A DNA stretch of 64,000 nucleotides, taken from an uncultured delta proteobacterium. GTDB taxonomy: Bacteria > Desulfobacterota > RBG-13-43-22. The DNA lies in contig CAWDKY010000015.1 in NCBI GenBank assembly GCA_963802945.1, positions 416,001 through 480,000 of the forward strand, in the 5' to 3' direction. The translations under genes were made by a program, and so were the position numbers. The notes under the pieces are model-generated. The model was not told where the DNA came from. It saw nothing but the letters and a program-made list of their open reading frames with translations, and did no database searches. Below, in pieces: positions 39,245-63,689 of the stretch; the first letter of the stretch is position 1; each line of letters begins with the position of its first letter.

Positions 39245-39266
39245 ACTAGTGCCTGACCCCGTTTAC
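39245..39266 (+). repeat. cassette downstream motif B (related to the reverse complement of 63133-63161)
   Basis: ACTAGTGCCTGACCCCGTTTAC versus ACTAATGCCTGA(ACCTTGA)CCCCGTATAC. Confidence 0.55.
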
Positions 39267-39557
39267 CCACTCATCTTTTGTTTTGGGATGGATGATAAAG
39301 CGATGTAGAATAATTGGGTTAGATCAAAAAAAATCGGCCCAATGGGAAAAAATAAGTTGTTTTAGAACCAACGTCCACTCCTACGGAACATCAACCTGTG
39401 AAATTTCAGCAAGAGTAAAGACGTTGAAAACCTGGGGCGGTTCTAACACGTCTATTCCCTGCAAGAAAAAAATTGCTCTTTCTTGCATACGGAGAACCTT
39501 TTTCTCTTGACAGGGCCTTTTAATGGGTGACCCCAAAAACCACTAAACCAAATTTTT

Positions 39558-40233
39558 TTATTTATTTCTATTAAATTTCCAGCCTTTTTTAATGAATATG
39601 AAGGACCAATCTATAAAAATTATATCAGCAAAAGAGCTCAGCAATAAAATAATACTAAGGTATATAACTTTCGTTTTTGGTTGGTCTAGGCACAAGTAGC
39701 TATCATAAGGACCAATAATAGAAGGAAACAAAATCAAAATAATTATCATGGTAGAACAATTTATCTCAAACCATGGCCAAGGGATTGACTTCCTAACAAA
39801 TTTTGGATTTGTTTTTCCAATTAAATACATCGAAAAAATCCAAAAGCAGTCAACAAAAAGGAGGGTTATTATTAGTTTGAAAAAGAGATCAATATTATTA
39901 TTTTTAAAAGTCAGCGCATAAAAGTATAGAATTGACAATTCCATGATAATAAGGCTGAAATCATAACCCCAGCTGAAATTTAGGGCGTTAGGAGGATTTT
40001 CTTCTAAGGTTTTTAAATACAATAACCTACCAATGTAAAAATCTGATAATAAAAGATAATAATACAAAAAGTGGACTCCATATCATTAGAAATTTCGAGT
40101 CCAGAGATACAGGAAAACCAAGATTATAAAATAATTCAAGGCCTTTTTGAAAAGCTCCCCCTGCCAGTATAGAAATAAAAAAGGTCGTTATTATTGCTCT
40201 GCGGCCAAAAATAATCGATTTAGAATCTATCAT
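39558..40233 (-). CDS. hypothetical multi-pass membrane protein split by a +1 frameshift
   Basis: ORFs 40027-40233 and 39558-40067 join (IIRF-YIGRLL) if one base of the homopolymer near 40040 is removed; several hydrophobic segments; AT-rich. Confidence 0.7.
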
Positions 40234-41267
40234 TAAAAAAGCTTTCGTTTGACCGAAATATTAATTCTATAAGAAAATGTTTCTGGCTCTCCATCAAGAT
40301 ATTTTTTCCCTGTATAAAATTGGAATAGTTCCATCGGACCTGTATCATCAGAAACAAAAATCTCTGGAAATGGATCCACTTTTTTTAAATCACCGGCTTC
40401 TGATATTCTCAATAAATCTATACCCCGTTTTAAGCTTATTAAAATTCTATAATCGGATATGATTGTTGACGTTTTTGGATTTTCTAAACCATCTCTAAAG
40501 ATTTTTTTATCCATCGAGTTCAATTGGTCTTTATAGGCTGCCAACTCACTTCGAGGGAGTTTTCTGTTTTCAATTTGTTCCGTAAAGGTTTTGAGTTCCT
40601 TTATAAACTTATTTTTTACCTCAAATGGATCAATAATTGAAAAAAAAAGAGGAACCCCCTTAACCGTATCAAATAATTTTTGAATTTTGTTAAGTTGTCG
40701 TTTTTTCTCTTTGAGAATACAAGTAGTTATAGGATTAAAAAAAAGCTTAAACGCATATATCATTCCAGGTTGGATTGATTCTTTACAATTTATAGTCACA
40801 AAGGTAAATTTGATCTCATCCAGAATTTTAATCTCTTCCCAATCAAAAACTTCATCGTCAAAAACATTAGTTTTATATTCGGAAACAATTCCCTTATGTT
40901 CAATTCTCTGATTTTTTTTGCCAGGGTAATCTTCTTCAATGATTACTTCTGGGGGAATCCATTTTATGGATTTTGAAGGAACTTTATTATAATGGTTATT
41001 TACCTTACTTTGTGGCTCCTTAAAATCTGAGGATAAATCTTTAAGTCTTTTATTATCATCAAGAAAATAAGAAAATTCATCATATCGCCACTTCTCAATG
41101 AAGGAGTTTGGATAGATTAATATTAGCTTTTCAATTGGAGACGGAGAACAATTCTGGACAAAAAATTCCGTACGAATTTCAGAGGAACCTTGGGCAAGTA
41201 TTTTTATATCTTCGTAAGCATAAACGATATCAATTTTCGCGTATGGGGCAAATAAATAAAAACACAT
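40233..41267 (-). CDS. hypothetical protein (AT-rich island)
   Basis: 344 aa open frame, TAATG-coupled to the membrane gene; no motif recognised. Confidence 0.75.
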   Translation of the reverse strand: MCFYLFAPYAKIDIVYAYEDIKILAQGSSEIRTEFFVQNCSPSPIEKLILIYPNSFIEKWRYDEFSYFLDDNKRLKDLSSDFKEPQSKVNNHYNKVPSKSIKWIPPEVIIEEDYPGKKNQRIEHKGIVSEYKTNVFDDEVFDWEEIKILDEIKFTFVTINCKESIQPGMIYAFKLFFNPITTCILKEKKRQLNKIQKLFDTVKGVPLFFSIIDPFEVKNKFIKELKTFTEQIENRKLPRSELAAYKDQLNSMDKKIFRDGLENPKTSTIISDYRILISLKRGIDLLRISEAGDLKKVDPFPEIFVSDDTGPMELFQFYTGKKYLDGEPETFSYRINISVKRKLF

Positions 41268-41284
41268 TTTTATTTTTGAAGGAT

Positions 41285-41458
41285 TTAACGGGACATCGGA
41301 GCATTTATAATATGACCGTTCTTTGTTTTGTCCTTAATTTCACCCACAACCGTGTTTATTTCTTTATCTATTTTCTTAATACATTGTTCGTTTGACAAGC
41401 CTTCTTTCTTACAAACTTCCACTATAAAACCCTCTTTTGGCTTTTTTTCGATTAGCAT
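41285..41458 (-). CDS. small hypothetical protein (57 aa, not in the ORF track)
   Basis: AAGGAGGG RBS; MLIEKKPKEGFIVEVCKKEGLSNEQCIKKIDKEINTVVGEIKDKTKNGHIINAPMSR; ends 17 nt before the next ORF. Confidence 0.6.
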   Translation of the reverse strand: MLIEKKPKEGFIVEVCKKEGLSNEQCIKKIDKEINTVVGEIKDKTKNGHIINAPMSR

Positions 41459-41591
41459 AGTCCCTCCTTGCCATTTTTTTATAGGATCTGTTTGTTATTA
41501 CATCCTATATTATTTATCGGAAATTTTAAAAAATCCTTTAACTTTAAATAATAAAATCCCTCCTAGTTTGAAACTTATAAAATTTAAACGG

Positions 41592-41895
41592 GTCAAGTCT
41601 GCTCTTGACTCTTTCTCTCAGTTATTCAATGACACAAACTTATTATAATAAAAAAAGGCTGAATATTTATTCGTTCGAAAAAAGGATGACCTGTTCACCT
41701 ATCACTTCAACCGGCCATTTGACCGGGCAACTTACTTCAAAAAGCAAGGAAATGTTACCTTCACAAACAACGGGTGAAGAGGTGTTTAAAAAAAAGGCCC
41801 TAGGGAAATTGGGTAATAATTGGTTTATAAAGGCAAAAAAGAGGGAAGTCAAGGAAAAAGTAGAAAAAGTTCGGAGTTGTTGTTCGGAATTCCGC
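41592..41895 (-). repeat. non-coding promoter/palindrome platform, copy 1 (inverted homolog of 61665-62085)
   Basis: 41592-41619 is 27/28 identical to rc(62058-62085); 41729-41753 is identical to rc(61927-61951); TTGACT-17-TATAAA at 41852-41824. Confidence 0.85.
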
Positions 41896-42033
41896 CTTGG
41901 GGTAACCAAAGACTTGGAGGGACAACCTATTTATTTTGTAAAATATTTCTTGATTTTTAACTTCCGATATTTTAGGTTATATTATGAAATATTATGTTTT
42001 ATTAAGAAATGGCGGACTTGGGGAGATAATGCA

Positions 42034-42255
42034 ATGCCTAAGTGGATGACGGTAAGGCAGATAGCTGAATATTTACAAATGAGTGATGATAAAATCTATG
42101 ACATGGCTCAAAAAAGAGAACTCCCCGGTTCAAAGGTGCGCATTCAATGGCGATTTGACCAGGATGAAATTGATTTATGGATGAGAGCCCAACGTCCGGC
42201 GGCCGGCATCACGTTACAGAAAAACAATAAAAAGTTAAAAAGGAATGTTAAATGA
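42034..42255 (+). CDS. excisionase-like (MerR-type/HTH_17) helix-turn-helix protein
   Basis: MPKWMTVRQIAEYLQMSDDKIYDMAQKRELPGSKVRIQWRF; GGGAG RBS; ATGA-coupled to the MTase. Confidence 0.88.
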   Translation: MPKWMTVRQIAEYLQMSDDKIYDMAQKRELPGSKVRIQWRFDQDEIDLWMRAQRPAAGITLQKNNKKLKRNVK

Positions 42256-43643
42256 AAATTTCACAAAATAAGAACAAGTCAGGCCATGATATTGCCGGAG
42301 TCTTATCATCCAACATGTATCACCATTTATTTCCCAAACACCTTGAACTTGTTCCGCAACTAAGCGAGGTGTATGAGCTCCAGTTGGCTTTTTATGAGAG
42401 TCAGATTCTTAAAGATGAAGAACTTATTAGAAATGGAGCATATTTTGCCAGCGTTGATAATAAGTTTACGCGTCATTTTCTAATGTGCAGCGGGGAACCA
42501 GTTCAATTGCCACAGCACTCATCATCAAGGTTACGTTCCTTTTTCCAAACCAACCAGTTTAAGACCGGATATGGAACCCATGGTTTATTCCCTTACCGTG
42601 GAAAGTTCCACCCTCAAATGATTAAAGGGCTAATCAATATAATGGGACTAAAACCGGGAGATACTATTCTCGATCCAATGATGGGTTCTGGAACCGTTCT
42701 AATTGAAGCGCGATTAATGGGAATTAAGTCGGTTGGTATTGATGCCAGCCCATTTTGCCGGTTTATGGTCCAGGCGAAAATAGACGGTCTCACTGTTCCT
42801 CTCCCCCCAATCCGGGCGGCCTTGAAAAAATCTCGGGAAGTTTTCGAACATTTTAAAGCTTTGGCTGGGCAACCGAAACAAGGGAAAAAGATGCGGGTTG
42901 AACCGGTCTATGGAGAGTTGTTTTCCCTTATGGAACCCATGGCCGACTATGTGCCAGGTCCGGCAGGGGACAGTAATCTCCCAGAAGGATGTGAGGCCAA
43001 AGAAGTTTATAATTTTCTTCTTTTGGCTTACTTGGACAGTGCCGGTTATTCAGAAAGGAGTAATCGAAAATCCCCATATGATCAATTCAAGGCCATCCTA
43101 GAACGGTATCTTTTTGTTTCCGAAAAAATCCAGAAGGTTTTGCTTGGGGTTGAAAGCGAACTGGCCGAGGCGAAACCTTTAGCGGGTGATGCCCGATCTT
43201 TAAATTTTCCTGATTCAAGTATAGACGGCATTTTATTTTCCCCCCCTTACAGCTTTGCCATTGATTATTTAGAGAATGATTCTTTCCATTTGAACTTTTT
43301 AGGGGTGGATATCGACAAGTTAAGAGAAGAAATGGTCGGTCTTCGTGGGAGAACTCTCCGCCAGAAATTTGATAATTACAAATTAGATATGGAAAAGATT
43401 CTTTCCGAATGCAGCCGGGTGTTACGTCCCGGTCGAATCTGTACTATTGTCGTTGGAACCAATAATAATCAGCTAAGCAAAATTCTCGGAATATCTCCTG
43501 ATCATGTCCAAGGGATTGACGAATTGTTTATTGAACTTGGTGTCAACCATGGTCTTCATCTTGTCCGAAAAATTAGTCGGCAAATTACCGGGATGGCCAA
43601 TACCATGAGGACTGAATATATCGTCATGTTACAACGCCGGTAG
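42252..43643 (+). CDS. DNA amino-methyltransferase (probably N4-cytosine)
   Basis: HGLFPYRGKFHPQ, motif I DPMMGSGT, motif IV FSPPY, RVLRPG. Confidence 0.85.
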   Translation: MKISQNKNKSGHDIAGVLSSNMYHHLFPKHLELVPQLSEVYELQLAFYESQILKDEELIRNGAYFASVDNKFTRHFLMCSGEPVQLPQHSSSRLRSFFQTNQFKTGYGTHGLFPYRGKFHPQMIKGLINIMGLKPGDTILDPMMGSGTVLIEARLMGIKSVGIDASPFCRFMVQAKIDGLTVPLPPIRAALKKSREVFEHFKALAGQPKQGKKMRVEPVYGELFSLMEPMADYVPGPAGDSNLPEGCEAKEVYNFLLLAYLDSAGYSERSNRKSPYDQFKAILERYLFVSEKIQKVLLGVESELAEAKPLAGDARSLNFPDSSIDGILFSPPYSFAIDYLENDSFHLNFLGVDIDKLREEMVGLRGRTLRQKFDNYKLDMEKILSECSRVLRPGRICTIVVGTNNNQLSKILGISPDHVQGIDELFIELGVNHGLHLVRKISRQITGMANTMRTEYIVMLQRR

Positions 43644-43647
43644 CTAT

Positions 43648-44256
43648 TTACTGCATGGCCCGACCGTCGGTTCCCTTAGGGATGCGGGGGACGGACAGGC
43701 TGACGGCATCATGTTCAATGGCAATAACAGCGAGTAACCCTTCTTCGACTTTCAAAGCCTTCCAAAGAGGAAAATAGGGCTCCAGTTCAGGGAAGTTTCC
43801 AATTCGATCAGTGAGGTATTTGTACATATTCCTCGTTGGGAGGATCAATACTCCACCTATGAGGACTTTTTTAAGAATCCCAAGGGCCATCTTGTTCACT
43901 GCCCGGTGGCTGGAGGATATATTTCCGGTCTCCCATTCAACACAAAAAAGTCGATTTCCAACAGGATAGGTAGCATCCATCGGCCCTGGTTTTTTTAAGG
44001 TGGCAATATCAACATGTGTTTCAAGCCCCCAACCCAAAGATTTCAGATGTAGCATGCAGGCATCCTTTATCGGCTTAACCCCATTTCCTTCCCCTCTGCC
44101 TTTTCCTGGTTGATCATATAGAGTAAATGAGTCGGAATCGAGTGGCCATCGGATGGTCTTAATTGCTTGTAAGATTTGCCCTTCAATCGTCTTCCATTCT
44201 TTGGTAGCCGAGAATTCTCCGGCGTCAATAAGTCGCTCCACTTGTATAATTTTCAT
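43648..44256 (-). CDS. BamHI-family type II restriction endonuclease
   Basis: NGVKPIK, GPMD...VEWETGNISSSHRAVNKM, LTDRIGNFPELEPY match BamHI conserved segments. Confidence 0.88.
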   Translation of the reverse strand: MKIIQVERLIDAGEFSATKEWKTIEGQILQAIKTIRWPLDSDSFTLYDQPGKGRGEGNGVKPIKDACMLHLKSLGWGLETHVDIATLKKPGPMDATYPVGNRLFCVEWETGNISSSHRAVNKMALGILKKVLIGGVLILPTRNMYKYLTDRIGNFPELEPYFPLWKALKVEEGLLAVIAIEHDAVSLSVPRIPKGTDGRAMQ

Positions 44257-44519
44257 CAGTCACGTCTCCTTTCCAAATAATCGTCTTTCAGCAATTTCTT
44301 GGCTTGAATTTCAATGTGTTGAAGAAGATCCGAGGGGTTGATCTTGAGTGATTTAGATAATTGAAAGATCGTTCTAAGGGTTGGATTTTTTTGACCACGT
44401 TCAAGAAGACTTATATATGTCCGATGGTAACCACTCTCATCGGCTAGGCGCTCTTGAGAAAAACCTTTTTCCAAGCGAATTTTTTTAAGGACCTGACCGA
44501 ATATGTTTTCCAGAGTCAA
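44256..44519 (-). CDS. XRE-family R-M controller (C) protein
   Basis: FGQVLKKIRLEKGFSQERLA...HRTYISLLERGQKNPTL; TGATG-coupled to the REase. Confidence 0.88.
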   Translation of the reverse strand: MTLENIFGQVLKKIRLEKGFSQERLADESGYHRTYISLLERGQKNPTLRTIFQLSKSLKINPSDLLQHIEIQAKKLLKDDYLERRRD

Positions 44520-44574
44520 GGGAACCCTCCTCGTAAGTGTAAATTGTTATTCTGTCGAATGTTAAGTTTTTGCA

Positions 44575-44599
44575 GATTATATGTCTACAGACTATAGTA
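44575..44599 (-). promoter_or_regulatory. C-box operator
   Basis: Minus strand TACTATAGTC-TGTA-GACATATAATC resembles the tandem GACT-TAT-AGTC C-box. Confidence 0.7.
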
Positions 44600-44778
44600 T
44601 TCACTTAAAACTAGACTTACTGATCTTTAATTGTTTAGAGTGAGAAAAAGAGGAAACGTTTTACGTAGCCGAACTTTGAGGAATGGGTATTTATTAGGAG
44701 GGAGTCAAAAAAAGAAAGATCGGAGTTGAAAGTTCAGAGAAAAAGATAACAAATGAAATGTGACAATATATGCTTAAG

Positions 44779-46380
44779 TCAAGTCACAAAGAAATCCGCC
44801 TTATTATTATGCGTCCAGTACCAAAGGAAGCCATGTTCCTCTTGTTTGACTTTGATATAGCCGGCATCCCAAAAATGTTTTAAGGTCTTGTGGATCAGTT
44901 GGCTATCGAAGCCGGTCGCTTCTTCCATCTTTCTACACAGCAGATCAAACGTAGTTTCAGGCCCGCCGTTTGGCGAATCCATCACAAAGGCCCCGCAGGC
45001 TTCTAACAGGTCTTCTGAAAGGATCTTATAGACCAGCTGCATCCTGAAATGTCCCGCCACCCTTAAATTATCCTCGGGGGTATTGGTGTTATCATGATAC
45101 CCTTGAACCTGTTTTTCCCATGCCTCCTGAATTTCCTGGTCAAATTCAGCCACGAATTGATTCATAGCTTCAGGGGTTAGGGCTGATGTCCTGACTATGG
45201 CACTGTTGGCATCATAATGGGCCCAGTCATCCGTTAGGATTTCAAGATCGTACTGATCAATCTGTTCTCTGACCGTTGTACCGGGGAAAGGGGCCAAAAA
45301 ATGATATCCGAAGATCATGTCGAGACTCTTTGAAAAGGCCGCCGTATCTTTCAAGGTTTCAGGCGTTTCTCCCGGCAGGCCGACCATGAAAGAGGCGTGA
45401 GGCAAGATCCCTACTTCTTTACAAAGGCTGACGGCCTTTCTGGCCTGATCGAGAGTGATCCCTTTTTTAACGCGCTTCAACATGTCCGGGTTTCCAGATT
45501 CAATGCCGAAACTGACACAATCACATCCGGTCTCCCGCATCAACTGCAGGGTCTCTTTGTCCACGGTGTTGACCCGCGAAAAGGCCGTCCAGCTAAAGGA
45601 AAGCTTCCGCCTGCGAATTTCTTCACAGACCTCATGAACTTTTCCCTTGTCGGAGGTAAACAGGTCGTCGGCCAGGTTGATCCGGGAAAAACCATAAGAC
45701 AGAATCTGTTCGATTTCATCCACGACCAGAGAGGCCTTTCGGGAGCGGGCCTTGCTACCCACCATTTTTCTGCCCTGGCAAAAAATGCAGGAATAGGGAC
45801 AGCCCCGGCCGGTGATCATGGAAACCGGAAATCCGAGGGCTTGATAACGGGACATGGGCAGCAGATGCCGCGCCGGCATGGGAAGTGTGTTCAAATCTTG
45901 GATCAGCTCCCGCTTCCCGGTTTGAATGATCTTTCCGTTTTCCCGGAAGGCGATACCGTAGATGTCCGACCGATTCCCCTGACCTTGAAAATGATCTATT
46001 AATTCTGATATGGTTTTTTCCCCCTCGCCGATAACCAGGATGTCGATTTCAGGGTAGGTTTTCATGGTATTGACGACATCAAAGGATACGTGAGGTCCGC
46101 CCATCATGGTGATCAAGGAAGGATCGATTTTTTTGGCTGTTTGGACTATGCCGGCCGCTAATGGAAAATTCATGGTCACCGAGGTGGCCCCCAATATACG
46201 AGGTTGGAATTCCTTAAGCTCTCGCTGCAACTTTTCCGGGGTATATCGGGACACGATGAAGTCAATGACTTTCACTTCCGCCCCCGCCTGCTCAAAGGCC
46301 GAGGCGACGTAGGACACACCCAGCGGCGGTGAAGGGGCTTCTTCCAGAGGATACGGGGGGGCGACAATGGCGACTCTCAT
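44779..46380 (-). CDS. B12-binding domain radical SAM protein
   Basis: PPLG, GGPH, GEGE, RGCPYSCIFC, FGIESG. Confidence 0.9.
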   Translation of the reverse strand: MRVAIVAPPYPLEEAPSPPLGVSYVASAFEQAGAEVKVIDFIVSRYTPEKLQRELKEFQPRILGATSVTMNFPLAAGIVQTAKKIDPSLITMMGGPHVSFDVVNTMKTYPEIDILVIGEGEKTISELIDHFQGQGNRSDIYGIAFRENGKIIQTGKRELIQDLNTLPMPARHLLPMSRYQALGFPVSMITGRGCPYSCIFCQGRKMVGSKARSRKASLVVDEIEQILSYGFSRINLADDLFTSDKGKVHEVCEEIRRRKLSFSWTAFSRVNTVDKETLQLMRETGCDCVSFGIESGNPDMLKRVKKGITLDQARKAVSLCKEVGILPHASFMVGLPGETPETLKDTAAFSKSLDMIFGYHFLAPFPGTTVREQIDQYDLEILTDDWAHYDANSAIVRTSALTPEAMNQFVAEFDQEIQEAWEKQVQGYHDNTNTPEDNLRVAGHFRMQLVYKILSEDLLEACGAFVMDSPNGGPETTFDLLCRKMEEATGFDSQLIHKTLKHFWDAGYIKVKQEEHGFLWYWTHNNKADFFVT

Positions 46381-46386
46381 CGGAGG

Positions 46387-47109
46387 TTAATCCCCTTTCC
46401 TCGGGAATATCATGGATCGCAGCCATCCCCAAAGGGTATTGCCTTTGAGATTGTTCTTTTCCTTCTCTTTAACCTCGGCCGTAAGGTGGGATATGATCGT
46501 AAACCAATCTTCCCGGGTCTGCATGGGTCTGTCCGTATCGAGCTGTTTCAGGATGACGGCCGGATTACCGGCTGCGATCACATTGGGCGGGATATCCTTC
46601 ACAACCACAGCACCGGCTCCGATAATACTGTTGTCCCCAATGGTAACCCCCTTACAGACAATGGCGCTGTCCCCGATCCAGACATTGTTTCCTATCCTTA
46701 CCGGGGAAGACTGTCCCACAAACATGCTTCGATCATAGAGGTCATGCCAGTCCGCATCGGTGACATAGGCGCGATTGGCCAGCATACAATTGTCCCCGAT
46801 ATTAATTTCCGTGGCCGCACTGATCCGGACCCCGGCGCATATCAAACAATATTTTCCTATAGTGATACTCCCTTCTCCTGTCCTGTTAGACCAAACCGTC
46901 AATCTAACCTTATTGTCTGATGTGGCTATGATATTGGCATAATCACCCAGAGAGATAGGACCGCCATTCACTTCAACACACCAAGGCTTCATGATGGTCG
47001 TGTCCTTGCCTAACTCCTCAAATTGAGGGCGCAGGAAATGATTTACATACCATACTTCAAACCGGTGGCTCAGACGTTTGATGCTATAAGGACGATGATC
47101 TCTTTTCAA
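46387..47109 (-). CDS. hexapeptide-repeat acyltransferase
   Basis: DADWH, IGNNVWIG, GVTIGDNSIIGAGAVV, AGNPA. Confidence 0.9.
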   Translation of the reverse strand: MKRDHRPYSIKRLSHRFEVWYVNHFLRPQFEELGKDTTIMKPWCVEVNGGPISLGDYANIIATSDNKVRLTVWSNRTGEGSITIGKYCLICAGVRISAATEINIGDNCMLANRAYVTDADWHDLYDRSMFVGQSSPVRIGNNVWIGDSAIVCKGVTIGDNSIIGAGAVVVKDIPPNVIAAGNPAVILKQLDTDRPMQTREDWFTIISHLTAEVKEKEKNNLKGNTLWGWLRSMIFPRKGD

Positions 47110-47156
47110 CGGATATCTACCTTGTTTATTTCAGGAGGTCTTTGAAAATCGGGGGC

Positions 47157-48248
47157 CTATATTCTCTGTATTTGTTCGTGGCCAACGGAAGGCAAGTCCG
47201 GGGCAAGGGATTCTTCGGCTTCCCTGGTGTTCCAGAAACTATGACTGAATAGTCGGCTGGCCGGTGTCAACTCATTAAGTGCATCATAGGCCAGAAGCAC
47301 GGCAGCGGCCGTCCAGGATGTCTTTTCCTCGGGCCAGATGACTCCATCGGGAAAGGTCACTCCCATCCAATAGGAACCATCATCGAATTTCTTGTCCCTG
47401 AGCCAGCTGAAAACCGTTTCTGCCCGATTGTAGTCGCCAATAGCCGCTAGGGCTATTACCAGTTCGGATGTCTCGGCCATGGTGACCCAGGGCCGGTCGG
47501 AAACACACCGAACCCCCCACTCTGGCACGGTAAATTTATCCCAGAATTTATCCATCCTTTTTCTGGCCTCCATCCCAGTAACGGCGCCGCAAAGAACGGG
47601 GTAGTACCAATCCATAGAATAGCGGGATTTGATCATATTAAAATAATCGGGTTTATTCCTGATGGCGTCTCCCAATTTTTGGAGGGCCTTATCCCAACTC
47701 GGCAGAGATTTATCCAATAGTGAGGCCATGGAAAGGGCACACTTGAGGCTCATATAGATAGAGCTGGAACCCGTTAACAGCGCCATGGGATCGATAATCC
47801 CCTTGCTGTTTTTCGCCCAGTAAATCTCCCCGGTGGGCGCCTGCAGATTGAGAGCGAAATTAATACCGGCTTTTACTGTCGGCCACATGTGTCTGAGGAA
47901 GGCTTTATCCCCGGTAAGTAAATAATAATGGAAAACACCGACGGCTATATAAGAGGCCATGTTGGACTCTCTGGTGGTATCTTCAGGAAGGCCGTTACGT
48001 GTGGCTGACCACCAACTCCCGTCTTTGAGTTGTGTCTTTAACATCCAGTCATAGGCCAGGGCCGCTTCCTTTAAATACCCGGCAACACTAAGGCCCATGG
48101 CACTTTCCACATGATCCCAGGGATCTGTTTTCCCATTTAAAGACCAGGGAATTTCACCATTCTCTTTTTGAATCCCCGCTATAAAGGCTGCCATTTTCTC
48201 AATATCAACGGGTGGTTCCGAAATACTTCTGGAGACAATGAGTTCCAT
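47157..48248 (-). CDS. prenyltransferase/squalene-cyclase-like (alpha/alpha barrel) protein
   Basis: Q..NGEIPW, DPWDHVESAMGL, Q..DGSW, LLTGSSSIY, SMDWYYP, GVRCV. Confidence 0.75.
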   Translation of the reverse strand: MELIVSRSISEPPVDIEKMAAFIAGIQKENGEIPWSLNGKTDPWDHVESAMGLSVAGYLKEAALAYDWMLKTQLKDGSWWSATRNGLPEDTTRESNMASYIAVGVFHYYLLTGDKAFLRHMWPTVKAGINFALNLQAPTGEIYWAKNSKGIIDPMALLTGSSSIYMSLKCALSMASLLDKSLPSWDKALQKLGDAIRNKPDYFNMIKSRYSMDWYYPVLCGAVTGMEARKRMDKFWDKFTVPEWGVRCVSDRPWVTMAETSELVIALAAIGDYNRAETVFSWLRDKKFDDGSYWMGVTFPDGVIWPEEKTSWTAAAVLLAYDALNELTPASRLFSHSFWNTREAEESLAPDLPSVGHEQIQRI

Positions 48249-48251
48249 TTT

Positions 48252-48366
48252 CCTAATCCGTTTCTGCACTGGAGAACGATGCCCTTCGCCAATAAAGGGC
48301 TTGAATTGCTATCCGGCATTCTGGTAAATCAAGGGTGATTTATGACATCCCATTCAAAAAATTTTT
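48252..48366 (-). pseudogene. possible C-terminal remnant of a class I SAM methyltransferase
   Basis: KFFEWDVINHP*FTRMPDSNSSPLLAKGIVLQCRK resembles the end of MTases that, from recall, precede this prenyltransferase family. Confidence 0.4.
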
Positions 48367-48548
48367 ATTATAAATTATTTTTTATTTTTTATCAATTAAT
48401 TAATAAGAATAGGGTGTAAAATTGAAGGGAAGCCTGATTGAGTAAAAAACCGTCCTGGTTTTTATGCAACCTATGGAGCAAATTTCAGATGAAAAAACCG
48501 ATCCCATTTACTTTTTATTAAACCTTCATGCCCCAGAGGGGCACCACG

Positions 48549-48672: not shown

Positions 48673-48675
48673 GTG

Positions 48676-50240: not shown

Positions 50241-50255
50241 ACGCTTCTTAAATTA

Positions 50256-50502: not shown

Positions 50503-50507
50503 GGTTT

Positions 50508-55350: not shown

Positions 55351-55449
55351 TGTTGAGTGCGGATTTCGGATTAGGTATTGCGAAATATGGGAAAAAAACA
55401 AAAAAAGATAACCAATATCATTTGAGGTTCTTGTAAAAGCCTCTTGGAC

Positions 55450-55476
55450 GTCATTCCGGCGGAAGCCGGAATCCAG
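55450..55476. repeat. REP-like unit, copy 3 (single arm)
   Basis: GTCATTCCGGCGGAAGCCGGAATCCAG. Confidence 0.7.
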
Positions 55477-55578
55477 TTTTTGTTTATTAATTAAACGCCC
55501 TTCGACGAACGAAATATTTGCCAATTTGGCATTGTGCTTCCATTTTTTTCTTAATCCCTTAAATGGGTAAGACGAACC

Positions 55579-55866
55579 ATGGTCATCGGTATCCTGGAAA
55601 TGATCCTTTATCTGCCGGAATCTCATTCCCTGAAGGACAAGCGCCAGGTCGTCAAAAGCGTAAAGGATAAAGTCCATCACCGATTTAATGTGGCCATTGC
55701 CGAAGTGGACGACCTGGATTTATGGCAAAAGGCCCGTTTGGGGGTTTGCAGCCTGGGTAATGATCGACGGCAGGTCAACGGTCGGTTGGATCAGGTGATC
55801 AATTTCATAGAACGGTTGCAGGTGGCGGTTGATATTGATACGCACATCGAACTGCTTGATTATTAA
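55579..55866 (+). CDS. DUF503 family protein
   Basis: HSLKDKRQVVKS...FNVAIAEVDDLDLWQ. Confidence 0.92.
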   Translation: MVIGILEMILYLPESHSLKDKRQVVKSVKDKVHHRFNVAIAEVDDLDLWQKARLGVCSLGNDRRQVNGRLDQVINFIERLQVAVDIDTHIELLDY

Positions 55867-55911
55867 CTGATGAGGGCTGAGTGGGGAATTTTTAGTTAGG
55901 AGATATTAGTT

Positions 55912-55962
55912 TAGAGTCCGGAGTTCGGAGTAAAATCTCACAACTCCGAACTCCGGACTCTA
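55912..55962. repeat. heptamer-based inverted repeat (hairpin)
   Basis: TAGAGTCCGGAGTTCGGAGT ... ACTCCGAACTCCGGACTCTA. Confidence 0.7.
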
Positions 55963-56002
55963 AACTGAAGTTACAAAATCCTCTGACCCCAGGAAAACGA
56001 TA

Positions 56003-56380
56003 ATGCAGTCTAACTCTTCAAAGCCCAAAAGGACGATACAAATCGGGGGATTGATCCAGCAGGAAATTTCAGAGTTGCTGGTCCGGAAAATAAAAGATCC
56101 CCGACTGGAAATGGTGACCATCACCGGCGTTGAGGTTTCGCCCGACCTGAAGCTGGCCCGGGTCTATTTCAGCCGGTTTGGAAATCCGGATGAAGTTCGG
56201 CGAGGGCTGGAAGGCCTTCAGAGTGCCGCAGGTTTTATTAAACGGGAACTGGGACAGCGCATGAAACTGCGGCGGGTTCCCGATTTGGAATTTAAACACG
56301 ATACTTCCTTTGAATATGGAGACCGGATCGAGTCGATATTAAAAGATTTATATCCGGACAAAGAACCTGTTGAATCATGA
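56003..56380 (+). CDS. rbfA: ribosome-binding factor A
   Basis: IKDPRL, VSPDLKLARVY, LRRVPDLEF. Confidence 0.96.
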   Translation: MQSNSSKPKRTIQIGGLIQQEISELLVRKIKDPRLEMVTITGVEVSPDLKLARVYFSRFGNPDEVRRGLEGLQSAAGFIKRELGQRMKLRRVPDLEFKHDTSFEYGDRIESILKDLYPDKEPVES

Positions 56381-57333
56381 GAACTATAAATTCTAAGCCC
56401 GTCCTAACCGCCTTTTCCGAACCATCGATCTGGGAAGGAATTTTAGTGGTGGACAAACCGGCGGGGATGACGTCCAACCGGGTGCTCCAAATCCTCCGGA
56501 AGATCGCCGACTTTCAAAAAATGGGCCATCTGGGAACGCTGGACCCGATCGCCACCGGGGTATTGCCTGTTTGTATCGGCTGGGCGACCAAGATCATCCC
56601 TTTTATTCCCGACCACACCAAGGGATATCGGGCCGTCATGGTCTTAGGAAAAAAGACGGACACCCAGGATGCGACCGGTCAGGTAATAATGACTTATCCA
56701 CTCGCACTGCCTGGTCGAAAAAGAATAGAGGATGTTTTTGAGGAATTCATCGGCCTTCAGGACCAGGTGCCCCCTTCATTTTCGGCCCTGAAATATAAAG
56801 GAAAACCTTTGTATCACTGGGCCAGGCAGGGGATAACGATCGTCAAACCGCCGCGGCTGATTACTATTGATTCCATTAAGATCCTGAACGTGGAAGGAGA
56901 ACGCGTGGCCTTTGAAGTTTTTTGTTCTCCAGGGACTTATATCCGGACGCTTTGCAATGATGTTGGGGACCGGTTGGGGTGCGGCGCCTATTTGGAGGAA
57001 TTGCAGCGGATTCAAAGCGGGCCTTTTATCCTTTCTCAAGCCCTGACTTTGGAAAAGATCCAAAACCTTTCTTTCCCGGAAGAAATCGAGGCCCATAAAA
57101 TCCCGATTGAGAAGATCTTGCAGAATCTTCCTCAAATCTGTGTGGAGTGGCAATGGAAAGAAAAAATTAAACAGGGAGGATTTTTGACCCCGGACCAGGG
57201 TATTTCCCCCTGGCCTCAAGTCGAACCCGGGGTGCCGATCTGTGTAAAAAGCCCTAAGGATGAATTGTGGGCCATTTATCAAAGAGAAAGGGATGCCAAA
57301 CTTATTTTTAAACCTATTAGGGTTATTATTTAA
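56377..57333 (+). CDS. truB: tRNA pseudouridine(55) synthase
   Basis: DKPAGMTS, GHLGTLDPIATGVL, GTYIRTL. Confidence 0.96.
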   Translation: MRTINSKPVLTAFSEPSIWEGILVVDKPAGMTSNRVLQILRKIADFQKMGHLGTLDPIATGVLPVCIGWATKIIPFIPDHTKGYRAVMVLGKKTDTQDATGQVIMTYPLALPGRKRIEDVFEEFIGLQDQVPPSFSALKYKGKPLYHWARQGITIVKPPRLITIDSIKILNVEGERVAFEVFCSPGTYIRTLCNDVGDRLGCGAYLEELQRIQSGPFILSQALTLEKIQNLSFPEEIEAHKIPIEKILQNLPQICVEWQWKEKIKQGGFLTPDQGISPWPQVEPGVPICVKSPKDELWAIYQRERDAKLIFKPIRVII

Positions 57334-57337
57334 ATAC

Positions 57338-57455
57338 GGGTCCAGGATTCGAGGATTCAAGTGTGTTAATTTCTATGCCTTTCACTCCGCCCTGCGGTCC
57401 TTGACCGTCTCGGCTGATCTCGTCGCAGGCCCTTGAATCCTTGAATCCTATTTTA
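57338..57455. repeat. dispersed intergenic repeat family, copy 3 (mosaic orientation)
   Basis: Contains the reverse complement of the 8419-8446 core and direct similarity to 48610-48672. Confidence 0.7.
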
Positions 57456-57517
57456 GTTTGAAGCTGCCCGTCTTAGACAGGCAAGAACATTTATTTAATT
57501 TTTAAAGGAGGTATATC

Positions 57518-57787
57518 GTGGGATTATATGCGGAACAAAAAAAAGAAATTCTGGGCAAATTCGGGGTACACCCCACAGACACCGGTTCCCCAGAGATTCA
57601 AATTGCCTTATTAAGTGAACGGATCAAATATCTGACTGAACACTTTAAAACCCACCAGAAGGATCACCACTCCCGACGGGGGCTGCTCAAACTGGTGGGT
57701 CAACGCAAACGGATGTTGAGTTATTTAAGAAAGAAAGATGCCGAGCGGTATCGAAACCTCATACAAGAATTAGGGATTCGCAAGTAA
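57518..57787 (+). CDS. rpsO: 30S ribosomal protein S15
   Basis: [26 protein letters not shown]. Confidence 0.98.
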
Positions 57788-57821
57788 AGTTTATTGCTTT
57801 CCTTATAAGGAGCATACAGCG

Positions 57822-59924
57822 ATGGTTCATGTAGTGACTACCGAAATAAATGGAAGGACCTTGAGTATTGAAACCGGCCGGGTGGCCAATCAGGCCGGCG
57901 GTGCTGTTCTGGTTCAATACGGGGAAACGATTGTCTTGGTTACAGTGGTATCCTCCAACGATATCCGGGAAGGGATCGATTTTCTGCCCTTGACGGTTGA
58001 TTATCAGGAGATGGCTTATGCCGCCGGAAAGATTCCGGGCAGTTTTTTCCGCAGGGAAATCGGCCGGCCGAGTGAAAAAGAAACCTTGACTTCCCGTTTG
58101 ATTGACCGCCCTTTACGTCCCCTTTTTCCCAAGGGGTATCGTAACGAAACACAGGTCATCGCCACGGTGCTTTCCGTGGATCAGGAAAACGATCCTGATG
58201 TCCTGGCCCTGGTCGGTGCTTCAGCCGCCTTAGAGGTCTCGGATATCCCTTTTGACGGGCCGATTGCCGGGATCAGGGTGGGCCGCCTCAATGGAGAATT
58301 GATTTTAAACCCCACCAATTCTCAGTTGATCGACAGCGATATCAACCTGATCGTGGCCGGCACCCGGGAGGCCGTGGTCATGGTGGAAGGCGTGGCCAAG
58401 GAGGTCCCGGAAGAAGATCTGGTGCAGGCTGTTTTTTACGGCCATCAGGGGATTCAAGCAATCCTCGATCTCCAGAAAAAACTGGGACTGGCTGTGGGCA
58501 CCACCAAAAAGGCATTTCCTGCTCCGGTGGAAGATGCTGCCTTAAAGGCTAAGGTTTTTGAAATGGCCCAGGCGCCTTTAAAAGAGGCTTTGACCCTCAA
58601 CGGGAAAAAAGAGCGTCAGGAACGTATTCATGAAATTCAGGAAGACCTCTTGAAAGAGTTAACCCAGGGCGACCCGGAAAACCCGGATACCCAAAAAGCA
58701 ATCAATAAATTCTTCGAAGAGCTGGAACGGCAGTTGATTCGCGATATGATCCTGAAGCAAAAAACCAGGATCGGTGGAAGGACCTATAATGAAGTCCGGC
58801 CCATCTCCTGTGAGGTGGCGGTTTTACCCAGGACCCATGGATCGGCCCTCTTTACCCGGGGGGAAACCCAGGCCCTGGCTGTAACCACTTTGGGGACTTC
58901 CTCGGATGAACAACGGATCGATTCGTTAAACGGGGAATCCTTCAAGTCTTTTATGCTCCATTATAATTTTCCGCCTTTTTCGGTCGGAGAGGCCCGGATG
59001 CTGCGGGGCCCCGGCCGGCGTGAGATCGGACACGGGGCCTTGGCCGAAAGGGCTTTGAAACCCATGCTGCCGTCCAATGAAGATTTTCCTTATACGATCC
59101 GCATTGTCTCGGAGATATTGGAGTCCAACGGCTCATCCTCCATGGCCACGGTCTGCGGGGCGAGTCTGGCTTTGATGGACGCCGGCGTACCCATTAAATC
59201 TCATGTGGCCGGAGTGGCCATGGGATTGATTCTGGAACAGGGCCAGGTGGCGGTTCTGACCGATATCCTGGGCGATGAAGATCATTGCGGGGACATGGAT
59301 TTCAAGGTCACCGGCACGGAAAAGGGGGTTACGGCCCTGCAAATGGACATCAAGATTCAAGGGGTAACTCAGGAAATCATGGGCCAAGCCCTTAGCCAGG
59401 CCAAGGAGGGGAGGCTGTCCATCCTCGGTTTGATGAACAAGACCATCCAGCAGCCCAGGACCAGCATCTCCGATTATGCCCCCAAGATCACCACCATAGA
59501 AATCAATCCGGAAAAGATCAGGGAAGTGATCGGCCCGGGCGGAAAGGTCATCCGGTCCATCGTTGCCGAGACCGGGGCCAAGATCGAGGTGGAGGATTCC
59601 GGAAAAATCATCATCGCCTCTTCTGATAGCAAGAGTGTGGATCGGGCCATTGCCATGATCAAAGAGATCGTTCAGGAGGTAGAGATCGGGCAGCTTTACA
59701 TGGGCAAGGTGATCAAGATCATGGACTTCGGGGCCTTTGTCGAGGTCTTACCCGGCACCGAAGGTCTGGTCCATATCTCCCAACTGGACAATCATCATGT
59801 CAAGAAGGTGACCGATGTGCTCAAGGAAGGCGATGAAGTCCTGGTCAAGGTCCTGGAAGTGGACCGGCAGGGCAAGATAAGGTTAAGTCGCAAGGCCGCC
59901 TTGGGCCAGACACTTCCCCAAAAA
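57822..59924 (+). CDS. pnp: polyribonucleotide nucleotidyltransferase (in frame with the downstream M16 peptidase in this sequence)
   Basis: Two RNase PH domains, [20 protein letters not shown] and S1 domains. Confidence 0.96.
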
Positions 59925-61190
59925 ATGACATCTATAGTCCAAAAAACCGTATTACCTAATGGGCTCCGGATCGTCACCGAGACCCTGCCATATCTATATT
60001 CGGTCTCGGTAGGCATCTGGGTGGAAAACGGCTCTCGTGATGAAAGCCCTGATGAAAACGGGATCTCCCATTTTATAGAACACATGATTTTCAAGGGCAC
60101 CCGTAATCGGACGGCCCTTATGATTGCCAAGGAGATGGATGCCATTGGAGGAATGTCCAATGCCTTCACCTCTAAGGAACAGACCTGCTTCTATACCCGC
60201 GTCCTGGATAATCATCTGGAGCAGGGGGTCGAAATACTCCTGGATATCTTTCTGAACTCCCTGTTCGATCCCGAAGAATTGGAAAGGGAACGGCTGGTCG
60301 TTCTCCAGGAAATCAGCATGGTCGAAGATACCCCGGATGAACTGATTCATGTGCTTCTGGGAGAAACGGTCTATCAGGGAAACTCTCTGGCCCAGCCGAT
60401 CCTGGGGACCCCGGAAACCGTTCAGGCGATTAATCAGCAAAAGATCCTGAATTACCTGGGGCGGTCCTATGGTCCGGAAAAGATAGTGGTGGCCGCGGCC
60501 GGAAAGGTGGATCATGAGGCCTTTGTAAATCTGATGGCCCCTGAACTGAACAAGATTCAACCCACCACCCCTGTGGTTAACCGACTTGATCCGATCCTGC
60601 GTTCAAAATCAAAGGTGTTTCCTAAAGATTTGGAACAGGTTCATGTGGCCTGGGCCGCCAAGGCCCCGTCGGCCATTGATCCCAGAAGATATGTCATCAC
60701 CCTGCTGAATGTCATTATGGGCGGAAACATGAGTTCCCGCTTGTTTCAGGAGGTCAGGGAAAAAAGAGGACTGGCCTATGCCATCTATTCCTTTCTCTCT
60801 GCCCACCAGGACACGGGTCTGTGGGGCATCTATACCGCCGTGGCCAAGGAGACCATGACCCAAACTCTGGAAGTGATCGGAGAAGAGCTGCGGAAACTCA
60901 AGAAGGGAGAACTCGATTCAACGGAACTTTCTGCAGCCAAGGAATTTGTCAAAGGCGGGATCCTCCTGGGGGCCGAAAGCAGCGATAACCGCATGACCCG
61001 TATTGCCAAAAATGAAATGACGTTCGGCCGGGACCTTACCTTTGAAGAAGTTCTGGATGATCTGAATAAGGTAACCACCGACGAGCTGGTTGCCCTGGCC
61101 GATGAGATTCTCCAGCCTGACCAATTTTCCCTGGTCTCTCTGGGGCCGGTGAACGATGGTGATCTCCCCACTCCGGCCATAGCCCTGTGA
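59925..61190 (+). CDS. M16 family zinc peptidase (pitrilysin-like)
   Basis: [18 protein letters not shown] inverted zincin motif, [16 protein letters not shown]. Confidence 0.93.
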
Positions 61191-61645
61191 TGACCAAGCT
61201 GATCCTTCAAATCCGGCGTCTGAATCCTGAAAGAGATAGGGATATTTCAATTCCCAGATACATGAGCCCCGGCTCCTCCGGACTGGATCTGCCGGCCGCT
61301 ATTGAAAACGAAATAACCCTCTCTCCAGGAGAAATCCGCCTGATCCCAACTGGCCTGGCCATGGCCATACCCATTGGATTTGAAGGCCAGATACGGCCCC
61401 GCAGCGGACTGGCCCTGAAACACGGCATCAGCTTGATCAACACTCCGGGCACCATCGATTCCGATTACCGGGGCGAAATCGGACTGGCGGTCATTAACCT
61501 GGGGCGAAAACCTTATACCATACGCCGCGGAGACCGCCTGGCCCAACTGGTGATCCATAAGGTTTATCAGGCCAATATTCAGGTGGTCGAGGATTTGGAT
61601 CCCACCGACCGGGCCAACGGCGGCTTCGGCCACAGCGGCATCTAA
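61187..61645 (+). CDS. dut: dUTP diphosphatase
   Basis: [28 protein letters not shown]. Confidence 0.97.
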
Positions 61646-61664
61646 TCCCTCCTTAATTTTTTCT

Positions 61665-62085
61665 TCGAACTCCGAACTCAACACTCCGAACTTCTTCCCC
61701 GCCTCATCCCTCGTTCCTCGTGCCTCATCCCTCATGCTTTTTATCGCCGAACGCTAAACGACTATTGTTTTTTATTTTTCCTTGACTCCCCCCCTTTTTC
61801 CCTTTATTTACTTATAATTATTTTTGGGCCCTCAGTTTTGAAGTTCAAGTTTTTTTTCGCCGAACGACGAATGCTGAACGTCGAATGTCCTTTTAAAAGT
61901 TTCTCACCCATATTTGTGAAGCTAATATTTCCTTGCTTTTTGAAGTAAGTTACCCGACCAAAGGGCCGATTGAATGGATAGCTGAACAGATAATCTTTTT
62001 TATTAATAAGTATTCAGCCTGTTTGTTATTTTAACAAGTTTGTCCCATTGAATAAACGAGAGAAAGAGTCAAGAGCTGACTTGAC
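61665..62085 (+). repeat. non-coding promoter/palindrome platform, copy 2, with extra heptamer blocks
   Basis: Inverted homolog of 41592-41895; TTGACT at 61782; terminal GTCAAG-AGCTGA-CTTGAC. Confidence 0.85.
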
Positions 62086-62138
62086 ACATTTTGACCAAAA
62101 AGAATCTACACAGACAAATTCAATAAGGAGGTGCTTAA

Positions 62139-63030
62139 ATGCCCAAAGTAAATGCCAACGGGATTCAAATTGAATATGAAACCTTCGGAAACGCATCAGG
62201 CCGACCGCTGCTTCTGATCATCGGGTTGGGCGGGCAATTGATCCACTGGGACGACGATATTTGCCGAGACTTCGCAAAACGCGGTTACTATGTCATTCGA
62301 TTTGACAACCGGGATGTCGGGCTCTCCACCAAATTCGAGGAAGCCGGCGTGCCGGACCTAATGGAAATATTCGGAAAGCTCATGCAAGGGCGAGAAGATC
62401 AAGCCGCCATACACAGTGGAAGATATGGCTGACGACGCGGTAGGCCTCCTGGACGCCCTTGGAATTCAGAAGGCCCACATCTGCGGTATGTCCATGGGGG
62501 GAATGATCGCCCAGACGATCGCGATCCGGCATCCTTCCCGCGTCCTGAGTTTGACCTCCATTTACTCAAACACCGGCAATCCGGAACTTCCTCAACCGAA
62601 GCCGGAGGTGATGGGACTGCTTATCACCCCTCCTCCCATCGAGCGGGAGGCGAACATCGAGCACATGCTTAATGTCTTTAAAACCATTGCCGGCCCTGGT
62701 TTTCCAGTGGATGAAAAGTGGACCCGCAAGATCCTGGCTGAGGGCTACGACCGCTGCTTTTACCCCCAGGGCGAAGCCCGCCAGCTCGTTGCCATTCTAA
62801 CGCAAGACAACAGGGTCCCCGCCCTTGCTTCAGTAAAGGTGCCGACCCTGGTGGTTCATGGAACCAAAGATCCTCTTGTCCCGGTAGAGGGAGGTAAGGA
62901 CACGGCCAAAGCGATCCCGGGAGCTCAACTGATGCTGATCGAGGGCATGGGGCACGATCTCCCGCACGGCGGGGCTTGGCCCCGGATCATCGAGGCCATC
63001 GTTGCCCACACGCAAAAGGCCGTTGTTTGA
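62139..63030 (+). CDS. alpha/beta hydrolase split by a +1 frameshift (extra G at 62388-62390)
   Basis: FDNRDVGLS, GMSMGG, HGTKDP, GMGHD; removing one G gives MQGEKIKPPYTVEDMA. Confidence 0.85.
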
Positions 63031-63689
63031 TAAGGAAGTTGCTTTTTGACTGACACGTTATGACAGAGGTCTTAGGGTCACCCTTCAAGAGAGCTTTGAA
63101 AGGCCTCTCTCAGGGGGAAAGGCGACCCATTTGTATACGGGGTCAAGGTTCAGGCATTAGTCATTAAGTATTTCCCAGATTCCTTTTTTATCTCTCAATA
63201 TTAGAATCAATTCTTTTATCTTGTCGTTATCCTTCGGTCTGATGGTATCACTTGTTGTGGATGACTGCGCGCCTAGGGTCGAGGCGATCCCACAAAACCA
63301 ATATCCTTTTATCGTTAGCCCGAAACACCAAGGCAAACTTTCTCAGGTGACGGGATCTGATAAATACCCCCGTGCTCCCGCACGGGGTATTAAAAATCAA
63401 ACACTGACTGTTTTGGATTTTTCTATGCGTCTTTGATGCTCATATCAAATTATGTCTGGTGTCATCTTCGGTATGACTGGTCCTTTTTATATTTATCGAA
63501 TTTCCTCTTGAAGAAGTTGTCACAAGGGAAGGGAGCCAAGCCTCCAACAGGTCTTGAAAGCCGATAAATTTGGTTTGTTTTTTCTTGAAAGAAGCATTAT
63601 ATTCCATAAAGAACTCCTGTTGCCCGCTTTGGAGTATCTAATCAACCAGTAACATTCATCAAGGTATTAAAATTCAAAAATAAGGGGGA

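Follow-up and report, generated by a model that had tools for sequence, protein, structure and literature searches.

What kind of system repeatedly places the same promoter-like sequence upstream of unrelated genes in one bacterial genome? The question is raised by two stretches, here called platforms, that lie in inverted orientation within a 64,000-nt window of DNA from an uncultured delta proteobacterium (GTDB lineage Bacteria; Desulfobacterota; RBG-13-43-22; GenBank assembly GCA_963802945.1, contig CAWDKY010000015.1, positions 416,001 to 480,000; this contig is termed C15 below). An earlier sequence-only reading interpreted them as a candidate cassette-capture system, integron-like in its layout of promoter, insertion site, and exchangeable cargo genes. 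Our analysis favors a different answer. The loci probably represent a genus-wide mosaic of composite intergenic repeats that bracket accessory genes and are associated with transposases of the TIRYT type. The features observed directly are the modules themselves, their copy numbers, their sharp junctions, enzyme genes with matching ends, and the orientation of the modules to downstream genes.

The window belongs to a 4.37-Mb bin of 72 contigs with a genome G+C content of 0.47 (G000). It was compared with 13 other genomes of the same genus, 7 other genomes of the same family, and 20 genomes of other families; the closest relative is G005. The parts of the two window platforms are as follows, where TIR denotes a terminal inverted repeat.

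41815 to 41900, minus strand: copy 1 promoter-like module P1, aligned across copies, with -35 hexamer TTGACT (41852-41847), a 17-nt spacer, and -10 hexamer TATAAA (41829-41824); a CCGAAC heptamer block precedes it.
41667 to 41779, minus strand: copy 1 conserved core (about 113 nt) that closes with a T-run and ...TAAG (nhmmer match C15:457779-457667).
41612 to 41666, minus strand: copy 1 linker "ext-i" joining core and hairpin, delimited by alignment of copies.
41589 to 41611, minus strand: copy 1 TIR_A, a 23-nt hairpin reading GAGTCAAGAGCAGACTTGACCCG (DNA fold -4.1 kcal/mol, z -2.9); Y1 transposase genes are flanked by this element too.
61664 to 61810, plus strand: copy 2 heptamer block (61664-61692) and P1 (-35 hexamer at 61782-61787, -10 hexamer TATTTA at 61805-61810).
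61902 to 62006, plus strand: copy 2 conserved core (nhmmer match C15:477902-478006).
62066 to 62088, plus strand: copy 2 TIR_A hairpin, GAGTCAAGAGCTGACTTGACACA, with a degenerate tail (DNA fold -4.3 kcal/mol, z -2.0).

When 41500-42000 (plus strand) was aligned pairwise with 61600-62140 (minus strand), the inverted homology described in the sequence-only reading was borne out, and similarity is unbroken from the palindrome inwards. Both the block of 27 matches in 28 nt and the identical 25-mer that had been reported as common to the two loci are present. A repeat finder recovered three pairs of arms, at 41679-41767 and 61913-62001 (89 nt at 85%), 41586-41655 and 62022-62091 (70 nt at 86%), and 41814-41866 and 61768-61820 (53 nt at 77%). 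Similarity drops further in, towards the TTGACT hexamer, and in copy 2 a further 46 nt are inserted between P1 and the core. At the other edge, the alignment runs only a few bases past GTCAAG-N6-CTTGAC, which agrees with the proposal that homology ends at this palindrome. The shared promoter hexamers are present: TTGACT-17-TATAAA can be read at 41852-41824 (minus strand) and TTGACT-17-TATTTA at 61782-61810 (plus strand), but a consensus scanner called neither. If active, P1 would drive the cargo genes.

The platform is not the two-copy arrangement that had been supposed. Searched with copy 1, the genome gave 31 matches; platform matches numbered 26 in an iterated nhmmer search, and a model built on the conserved core found 21. 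Because three of these 21 are near-identical contig duplicates (C20 and C64 versus C16), they correspond to 18 distinct core loci. The short contigs C20 and C64 nearly duplicate parts of C16, which fits a strain mixture in the bin. Elsewhere, the core was found in 10 of the 13 other genomes of the genus and in one of the 7 other genomes of the family, and a single weak match of 41 nt appeared among the 20 genomes of other families. An exact 23-nt pattern hit 9 stretches in four public bins titled Thermodesulfobacteriota, "uncultured delta proteobacterium," or Pseudomonadota. A plasmid or phage origin was set aside, since the platform had no match in plasmid or phage collections.

Aligned copies reveal that a full platform consists of P1, short CGAAC-type repeats, the core, and one of several alternative tails, in that order. 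P1, with the consensus CCTTGACTYCCCCC...TTTATTTT, is also found alone before other genes. The core of about 100 nt comprises long near-invariant blocks and ends in the T-run and ...TAAG. It holds three TGAAGT repeats, and that a protein might bind there is only an idea. After the core, at least three alternative continuations recur. The ext-i tail, carried by both window copies, ends in the hairpin GAGTCAAGAGCAGACTTGACCCC, and a second tail, "ext-ii," ends in AATGCAAAGAAAATAGACCTGACCCC. The ext-ii tail spans about 130 nt (C14:129.5 kb, C19:1.5 kb, C15:516.6 kb, and C27:60.8 kb) and includes a conserved stem, about 9 bp long. This stem reads GAGGTCGCA...TGTGACCTC in some copies, with changes on both sides from one copy to another. 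The tail matches no Rfam family.

A conserved intergenic block that lies downstream from a promoter-like module and ends in a T-run might encode a family of small RNAs, or a common 5' leader transcribed from P1, with both the RNA and the homology ending at the T-run. The core is strongly conserved across species and oriented towards genes, as would be expected of such RNAs. However, RNAalifold found almost no consensus structure: the value was -4.3 kcal/mol for 15 copies from the genome itself and -0.39 kcal/mol for 33 copies from multiple species, in which none of four predicted pairs was backed by a compensatory change. No G+C-rich stem precedes the T-run, a terminator scan did not call it, and no Rfam family fits the core. 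Rfam was searched with the whole window at the gathering threshold, with both window platforms at E values up to 10, and with six other loci; neither the platform nor the alternative tail matched a family, and only matches at chance level were seen. A metatranscriptome run contained 5% of the sampled words; over 44001-64000 it yielded only contigs of relatives, mostly below 95% identity, which carry no strand, start, or end information. The core is conserved as sequence rather than as RNA structure, and an RNA origin of the homology seems quite unlikely. As a structured RNA (riboswitch, leader, or small RNA), the core was rejected for want of covariation support in RNAalifold and of an Rfam match.

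A clue to the nature of the platforms comes from the hairpin that ends both window copies. The sequence-only reading had postulated an HUH enzyme of the REP-associated tyrosine transposase (RAYT) type, where REP denotes repetitive extragenic palindromic sequences, acting on GGGTCA/TGACCC hairpins, and had advised a search for Y1/HUH genes flanked by the shared motifs. Indeed, a gene for a 326-aa Y1 protein on contig C32 bears TIR_A, the platform palindrome, at both ends, one inverted copy lying 30 nt ahead of the start and the other spanning the stop codon. Among seven orthologous genes examined (91-50% identity), the hairpin is present at both ends in six (G000, G005, G004, G010, G012, and G001) and at one end in G011. 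The more distant orthologues have a different loop and a partly different stem, changed in the same way at both ends. A fuzzy search of G000 gave 24 matches to TIR_A, 8 on platforms and 16 elsewhere, and as single-stranded DNA the element folds at -4.1 to -4.7 kcal/mol (z -2.0 to -2.9).

The C32 gene is one of a group. G000 has 10 Pfam Y1_Tnp matches, four of which are of the IS200 type; the others are longer proteins. Scores for Y1_Tnp are 30-48 bits against a cut-off of 23, and HYH and the tyrosine of YIHRNP can be read. The best NCBIfam family for these longer proteins is "REP-associated tyrosine transposase," with 56-85 bits against an 80-bit cut-off that one of four proteins passes; the C32 protein, at 71.9 bits, falls just below it. 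For the helix-turn-helix (HTH) domain Bac_DnaA_C, the C32 protein scores 40.5 bits, above the cut-off of 31.5, and a C16 paralogue scores 30.6, just under it, while HTH_3 and HTH_23 match a third paralogue weakly. The other Y1 paralogues possess inverted repeats of their own, 20-26 nt long, and three of four kinds end in GGGTCA...TGACCC. One of these repeats, TIR_B, has 21 copies in G000 and is the sequence that ends the ext-ii tail; it also forms small two-ended elements of about 140 nt (e.g., C16:314117-314255).

Genes of this kind have been described before. RAYT-like genes flanked by inverted repeats were named "TIRtrons" and their products "TIRYT," with flanking repeats of the consensus GGGGWSAS that in some families are moderately abundant (Di Nocera et al. 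2013, PMC3733652). In a later classification, most TIRYT genes fall in subclass 2.1 and carry C-terminal Bac_DnaA_C or HTH domains (Quentin et al. 2018, PMC6006769). The TIRtrons, which correspond to subclass 2.1.2 of that classification, are the closest known system to the one here. The class is little studied, and a literature search on it returned no works beyond these two. The resemblance is threefold: a RAYT-type Y1/HUH protein with a C-terminal Bac_DnaA_C-like HTH, gene-flanking inverted repeats that begin GGGG-T-C-A, and moderately abundant families of dispersed repeats, some of them self-complementary (PMC3733652, PMC6006769). In G000, a RAYT-type Y1 domain, a C-terminal HTH, flanking terminal inverted repeats, and dispersed repeat copies are all found together. 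The end motif GGGGWSAS is fitted by TIR_B (GGGGTCAG) and by the sequence termed TIR_C (GGGGTCAC), which is described below; TIR_A reads GGGGTCAA, with the last position departing from S. Judged by these sequence features, TIR_A is the terminal inverted repeat of a TIRtron encoding a predicted RAYT-like HUH/Y1 transposase with a DnaA-C-like HTH (TIRYT). The Y1 enzymes may be what spread the repeats.

The platforms differ from TIRtrons in that the repeat is fused to longer modules (the promoter-like P1, the core, and the linker), that these modules stand upstream of accessory genes in fixed orientation, and that several TIR families bracket the same genes. In the available text of the two TIRtron descriptions, no mention of composite gene-bracketing units was found (PMC3733652, PMC6006769). 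The platforms also resemble REP/REPIN-RAYT systems, in which short intergenic palindromes are dispersed and flank a cognate Y1 gene in inverted orientation (Bertels and Rainey 2011, PMC3116915). Unlike REP sequences, TIR_A lacks a GTAG or CGTC tag, having GGGG instead, and numbers 24 copies rather than hundreds. Several Y1 paralogues are present per genome here, and most copies are singlets joined to other modules, not doublets.

Two side observations concern remnants of these repeats. At C27:136.9-138.2 kb, a 5' remnant of a Y1 gene adjoins one TIR_A copy, another TIR_A lies at a distance of 1.3 kb, and the whole is probably a decayed TIRtron. At C14:31.4-32.6 kb, an IS110-family transposase gene starts just after a truncated TIR_B that closes a platform tail. 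Because the gene stands at the point where the TIR_B homology breaks off, it is read as inserted into the repeat, and an IS110 bridge RNA was therefore dropped as a possible source of the repeats.

Other known systems share part of the layout. In enterobacteria, bacterial interspersed mosaic elements (BIMEs), and in Neisseria, neisserial intergenic mosaic elements (NIMEs) and promoter-bearing Correia elements, make up intergenic regions from a few shuffled repeat modules, some of which carry outward promoters and mark places of varying gene content. The platform differs from these in its sequences, its host phylum, and its link to the ends of Y1 transposase genes. Insertion sequences of the IS200/IS605 group (IS608 type) use Y1 HUH enzymes that recognize hairpins near the element ends; their subterminal hairpins are like-oriented and their insertion target is known, whereas the ends here are inverted repeats. 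As for integrons, the arrangement of a promoter platform, variable genes that look promoterless, and a short end motif is indeed similar, as the sequence-only reading had it, but no integron integrase was found in G000, where the best score for TIGR02249 is 79.6 bits against a cut-off of 265. Moreover, unlike integrons, the platforms have no cassette arrays, and their ends belong to transposase repeat families.

The genes that follow the platforms offer a second line of evidence. In the window, the two sets of cargo are as follows.

39558 to 41458, minus strand: cargo 1, four open reading frames (ORFs) of 57, 344, 68, and 169 aa with G+C contents of 0.28-0.32 and no Pfam or PADLOC match.
62139 to 63030, plus strand: cargo 2, an alpha/beta hydrolase gene, frameshifted into 62139-62432 (97 aa) and 62416-63030 (204 aa).

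Cargo 1 had been described as an AT-rich operon of three unfamiliar genes; it is AT-rich and matches no known family, but holds four ORFs. It was dropped as a known defense system after PADLOC gave no match. The 344-aa protein was not found in any of the 20 other genomes of the family, and in a large protein collection it matched only itself. The assignment of cargo 2 to the alpha/beta hydrolases was confirmed by a Pfam match. The orthologue in G005 is an intact open frame of 296 aa, and the break at 62416-62432 may be genuine, making the gene a pseudogene, or may stem from the assembly.

Unrelated cargo at fixed break points, as proposed from the two window loci, recurs in many platform copies. 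Genes found after platforms in G000 are mutually unrelated and include those for a GH1 glycosidase, the alpha/beta hydrolase, a pentapeptide-Mrr nuclease, a DcrB-like protein, a restriction-modification module, a ferredoxin-domain protein, zinc-ribbon proteins, ORF6N and DUF433 proteins, and a 79-aa ORF without a Pfam match; the platforms of relatives precede equally varied genes. Despite this diversity, orientation is nearly constant. The core points in the same direction as the downstream ORF in 38 of 43 loci (14 of 16 in G000 and 24 of 27 in relatives), counting the longest ORF of at least 100 aa that begins within 900 nt after the core; three further loci have no such ORF. The core was also considered as the native upstream region of ORF6N genes, and this was rejected because only one of 11 ORF6N matches in G000 has a core. 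The core-ORF6N arrangement is present in two relatives. The outcomes that the sequence-only reading had named as contrary to it, which were either a mere two copies without a fixed breakpoint, or a platform that is a duplicated decayed gene fragment with motifs B and C widespread in the genome independently of it, are not what the analysis revealed.

What closes the cargo on its far side was attributed to two shared motifs, C and B, and both were found where expected at the two loci.

39388 to 39535, minus strand: repeat R-C, with a sharp start at TIR_C, GGGGTCACCCATTAAAAGGCC (39534-39514), which corresponds to motif C.
39233 to 39385, minus strand: repeat R-B region, with motif B (39245-39266; contains GGGGTCAGG) at its end.
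63075 to 63161, plus strand: copy 2 motif C (GGGTCACCC...AAGGCC, 63075-63104) and motif B (63133-63161, holding GGGGTCAAGG).

In the genome, composite motif B is confined to the two window loci, with one copy at each, and composite motif C is present four times. Nevertheless, the two do not form a private cassette signal, as had been suggested: both have GGGGTCA-type ends, and motif C is the first 21 nt of R-C, a repeat of about 150 nt with a sharp start that has its own family. The TIR_C 21-mer has nine copies in the genome versus none for a reversed control, and no Y1 gene flanked by TIR_C was found in G000. A weaker homologue of motif B follows a third platform-led gene, on C17, where the locus also bears GGGGTCACATC, the end of another Y1 gene's repeat. 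Folding analysis gave no stable structure for TIR_C (z -0.2) or for motif B (z +0.3). Three further observations touch these repeats. A palindromic repeat of about 145 nt, resembling a miniature transposon, has more than 35 copies in G005, one of them inserted inside the motif C hairpin at the orthologue of window 63075-63104, and at least six in G000 (among them C15:234241, C32:43033, C16:39555, C17:285995, and C25:27720). Copies of R-B are interspersed with ORF6N genes at C30:253-268 kb and C53:82-87 kb. The 11 ORF6N-domain matches in G000 lie mostly in these two clusters.

Because the platform tail ends in TIR_A and motifs C and B carry a GGGGTCA-type end, the cargo lies outside the repeat elements, flanked by one repeat's right end and the following repeat's left end. 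The Y1 gene sits between a left and a right end, so the polarity of the cargo is the opposite. A GGGGTCA-type (or GGGTCAC) motif stands on the cargo strand within 130 nt after the last cargo ORF at 6 of 17 platform loci. The baseline for GGGGTCA alone is 54 of 2806 ORFs of at least 200 aa, and Poisson arithmetic, with cargo ends judged after the data had been seen, puts the chance of such a count near 1e-6. Spacing of GGGGTCA and TGACCCC across the whole genome was uninformative, as 7-mers of this kind are too common.

Comparison between loci and between species shows where gene content changes. Copy 1 and a neighboring restriction-modification module lie together in a variable island; the parts of the module were assigned through Pfam.

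39130 to 44798: variable island of 5.7 kb, with flanks syntenic in G005 at 94% and 88%.
42034 to 44519: Type II restriction-modification module.
42034 to 42255, plus strand: HTH_17 protein.
42252 to 43643, plus strand: N6/N4 methylase.
43648 to 44256, minus strand: BamHI-family endonuclease.
44256 to 44519, minus strand: C-protein HTH.

At the position of the island, G005 has an unrelated 1.67 kb with a GH1 gene. Within G000, the restriction-modification module together with P1 and the core (window 44689-41667) is duplicated at C16:206268-209305. The two copies share 3.1 kb in all, at 90.2% over 2832 nt (the module at C16:206268-209089) and 82.6% over the core. After the core, sequence and genes differ, and each locus then has a copy of TIR_C behind its cargo. 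The frame of the BamHI-family endonuclease is broken into pieces at the C16 locus.

The hydrolase has orthologues at 80-86% identity in G003, G013, G007, and G020, all in other contexts, and in the 11 loci examined a platform stands beside the hydrolase in only two, those of G000 and G005. Homology to the flanks of the G007 and G020 hydrolases begins just after TIR_A and ends just before motif C, and the gene keeps only about 50 nt of its own flank per side between these points. The whole copy 2 locus is syntenic in G005 at 90-93%, with motifs C and B diverged about as much as their surroundings. No empty site was found downstream from dut, where the platform and hydrolase are common to G005 only and eight other members of the genus carry other genes, nor upstream of cdhD, where the homology of other species reaches only about 120-140 nt. 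At C15:500-520 kb, rearrangement relative to G005 is too heavy to define insertions. Junctions of this kind may be preferred places for gene gain and exchange.

These comparisons bear directly on the original proposal, in which the platform would be a fixed expression site and a TIRYT supplied in trans would cut single-stranded DNA at TIR_A and at GGGGTCA ends to insert or exchange cassettes, giving the function of an integron. Fixed break points with unrelated cargo, the paralogous pair that agrees over 3.1 kb and then carries different cargo with a TIR_C copy after each, and the existence of enzyme genes with matching ends are all in keeping with it. The same is true of the hydrolase, which lies with its short flanks exactly between TIR_A and motif C and has orthologues elsewhere without platforms, and of cargo 1, which is AT-rich and found in no relative. 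However, a run from right end to left end is the wrong polarity for a simple Y1 element, and the 3' ends of the cargo come from different TIR families. The duplicated pair breaks after the core and not at the hairpin, and only 8 of the 21 cores carry TIR_A. With no empty site, target duplication, joined ends, or circular form found, capture by site-specific recombination did not gain support, and we consider it unlikely.

A passive history offers another way to account for the same loci. Segmental duplication and homologous recombination between dispersed repeats could have produced them with no present action of an enzyme and no selected function. One such event is plain, since the 3.1-kb segmental duplication takes in a platform, and copy 2 with its cargo was simply inherited in G005, where motifs B and C diverged like everything around them. 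Yet core copies still match at 75-89% in species whose proteins are 75-83% identical, the module edges are sharp and recur in many unrelated contexts, and hairpin and enzyme stay together across species. A purely passive origin therefore seems quite unlikely.

The interpretation as a mosaic of TIRYT-associated repeats that bracket accessory genes remains the one we favor, and the following points weigh against it. To our knowledge, TIRYT activity has never been demonstrated biochemically. The platform has a TIR at one end only, and no two-ended platform was found; inverted repeats at both ends together with a target-site duplication, as in a miniature inverted-repeat transposable element (MITE), are not a feature of it. 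The distribution of the core is a weak point, in that its presence follows that of the enzyme clade imperfectly: the core has 12 matches in G008, whereas the closest match in that genome to the C32 Y1 gene reaches only 34% identity. The missing empty sites, target duplications, joined ends, and circular forms count here as well. A hairpin followed directly by GGGGTCA gave only four matches in 14 genomes, and the two that were read lie inside coding sequence. Both P1 copies in the window lack the usual T at position 6 of the -10 hexamer, which adds to the failure of the consensus scan to call them. Further weak points are technical. The count of 6 in 17 was set post hoc and accepts GGGTCAC, whereas its baseline is for GGGGTCA alone; the fuzzy searches for TIR_A (up to five substitutions allowed) and TIR_B were run without a shuffled control; and the bin has 6.7% contamination and three near-duplicate contig pairs.

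The repeats of this genus bear on the cellular role of RAYT- and TIRYT-type enzymes, for they go beyond plain palindromes. Joined to them is a promoter-like conserved module that stands before accessory genes (restriction-modification, Mrr-like nuclease, DUF433, and orphan genes), and they mark sharp junctions at which paralogous loci, and also species, differ in gene content. Enzyme action at these junctions, if it occurs, would link a domesticated-looking transposase family to the turnover and expression of accessory genes. Should capture itself prove true, with foreign or relocated genes docked and expressed at the platform, the system would be an HUH-based functional counterpart of integrons that relies on a different recombinase. 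If the enzymes do not act there, the platforms would provide a clean case of mosaic intergenic repeats in uncultured Thermodesulfobacteriota, as well as a warning that ordinary repeat families can yield an integron-like layout.

Additional short repeats are scattered through the window. Positions 55908-55966 contain a perfect 24-nt inverted repeat of CCGAACT-type heptamers, the same as those that flank platforms. A related pair of stretches at 48546-48680 and 57356-57462 shares direct repeats (50 nt at 80%) and inverted arms, and holds short repeats of the CCTTGAATCC type.

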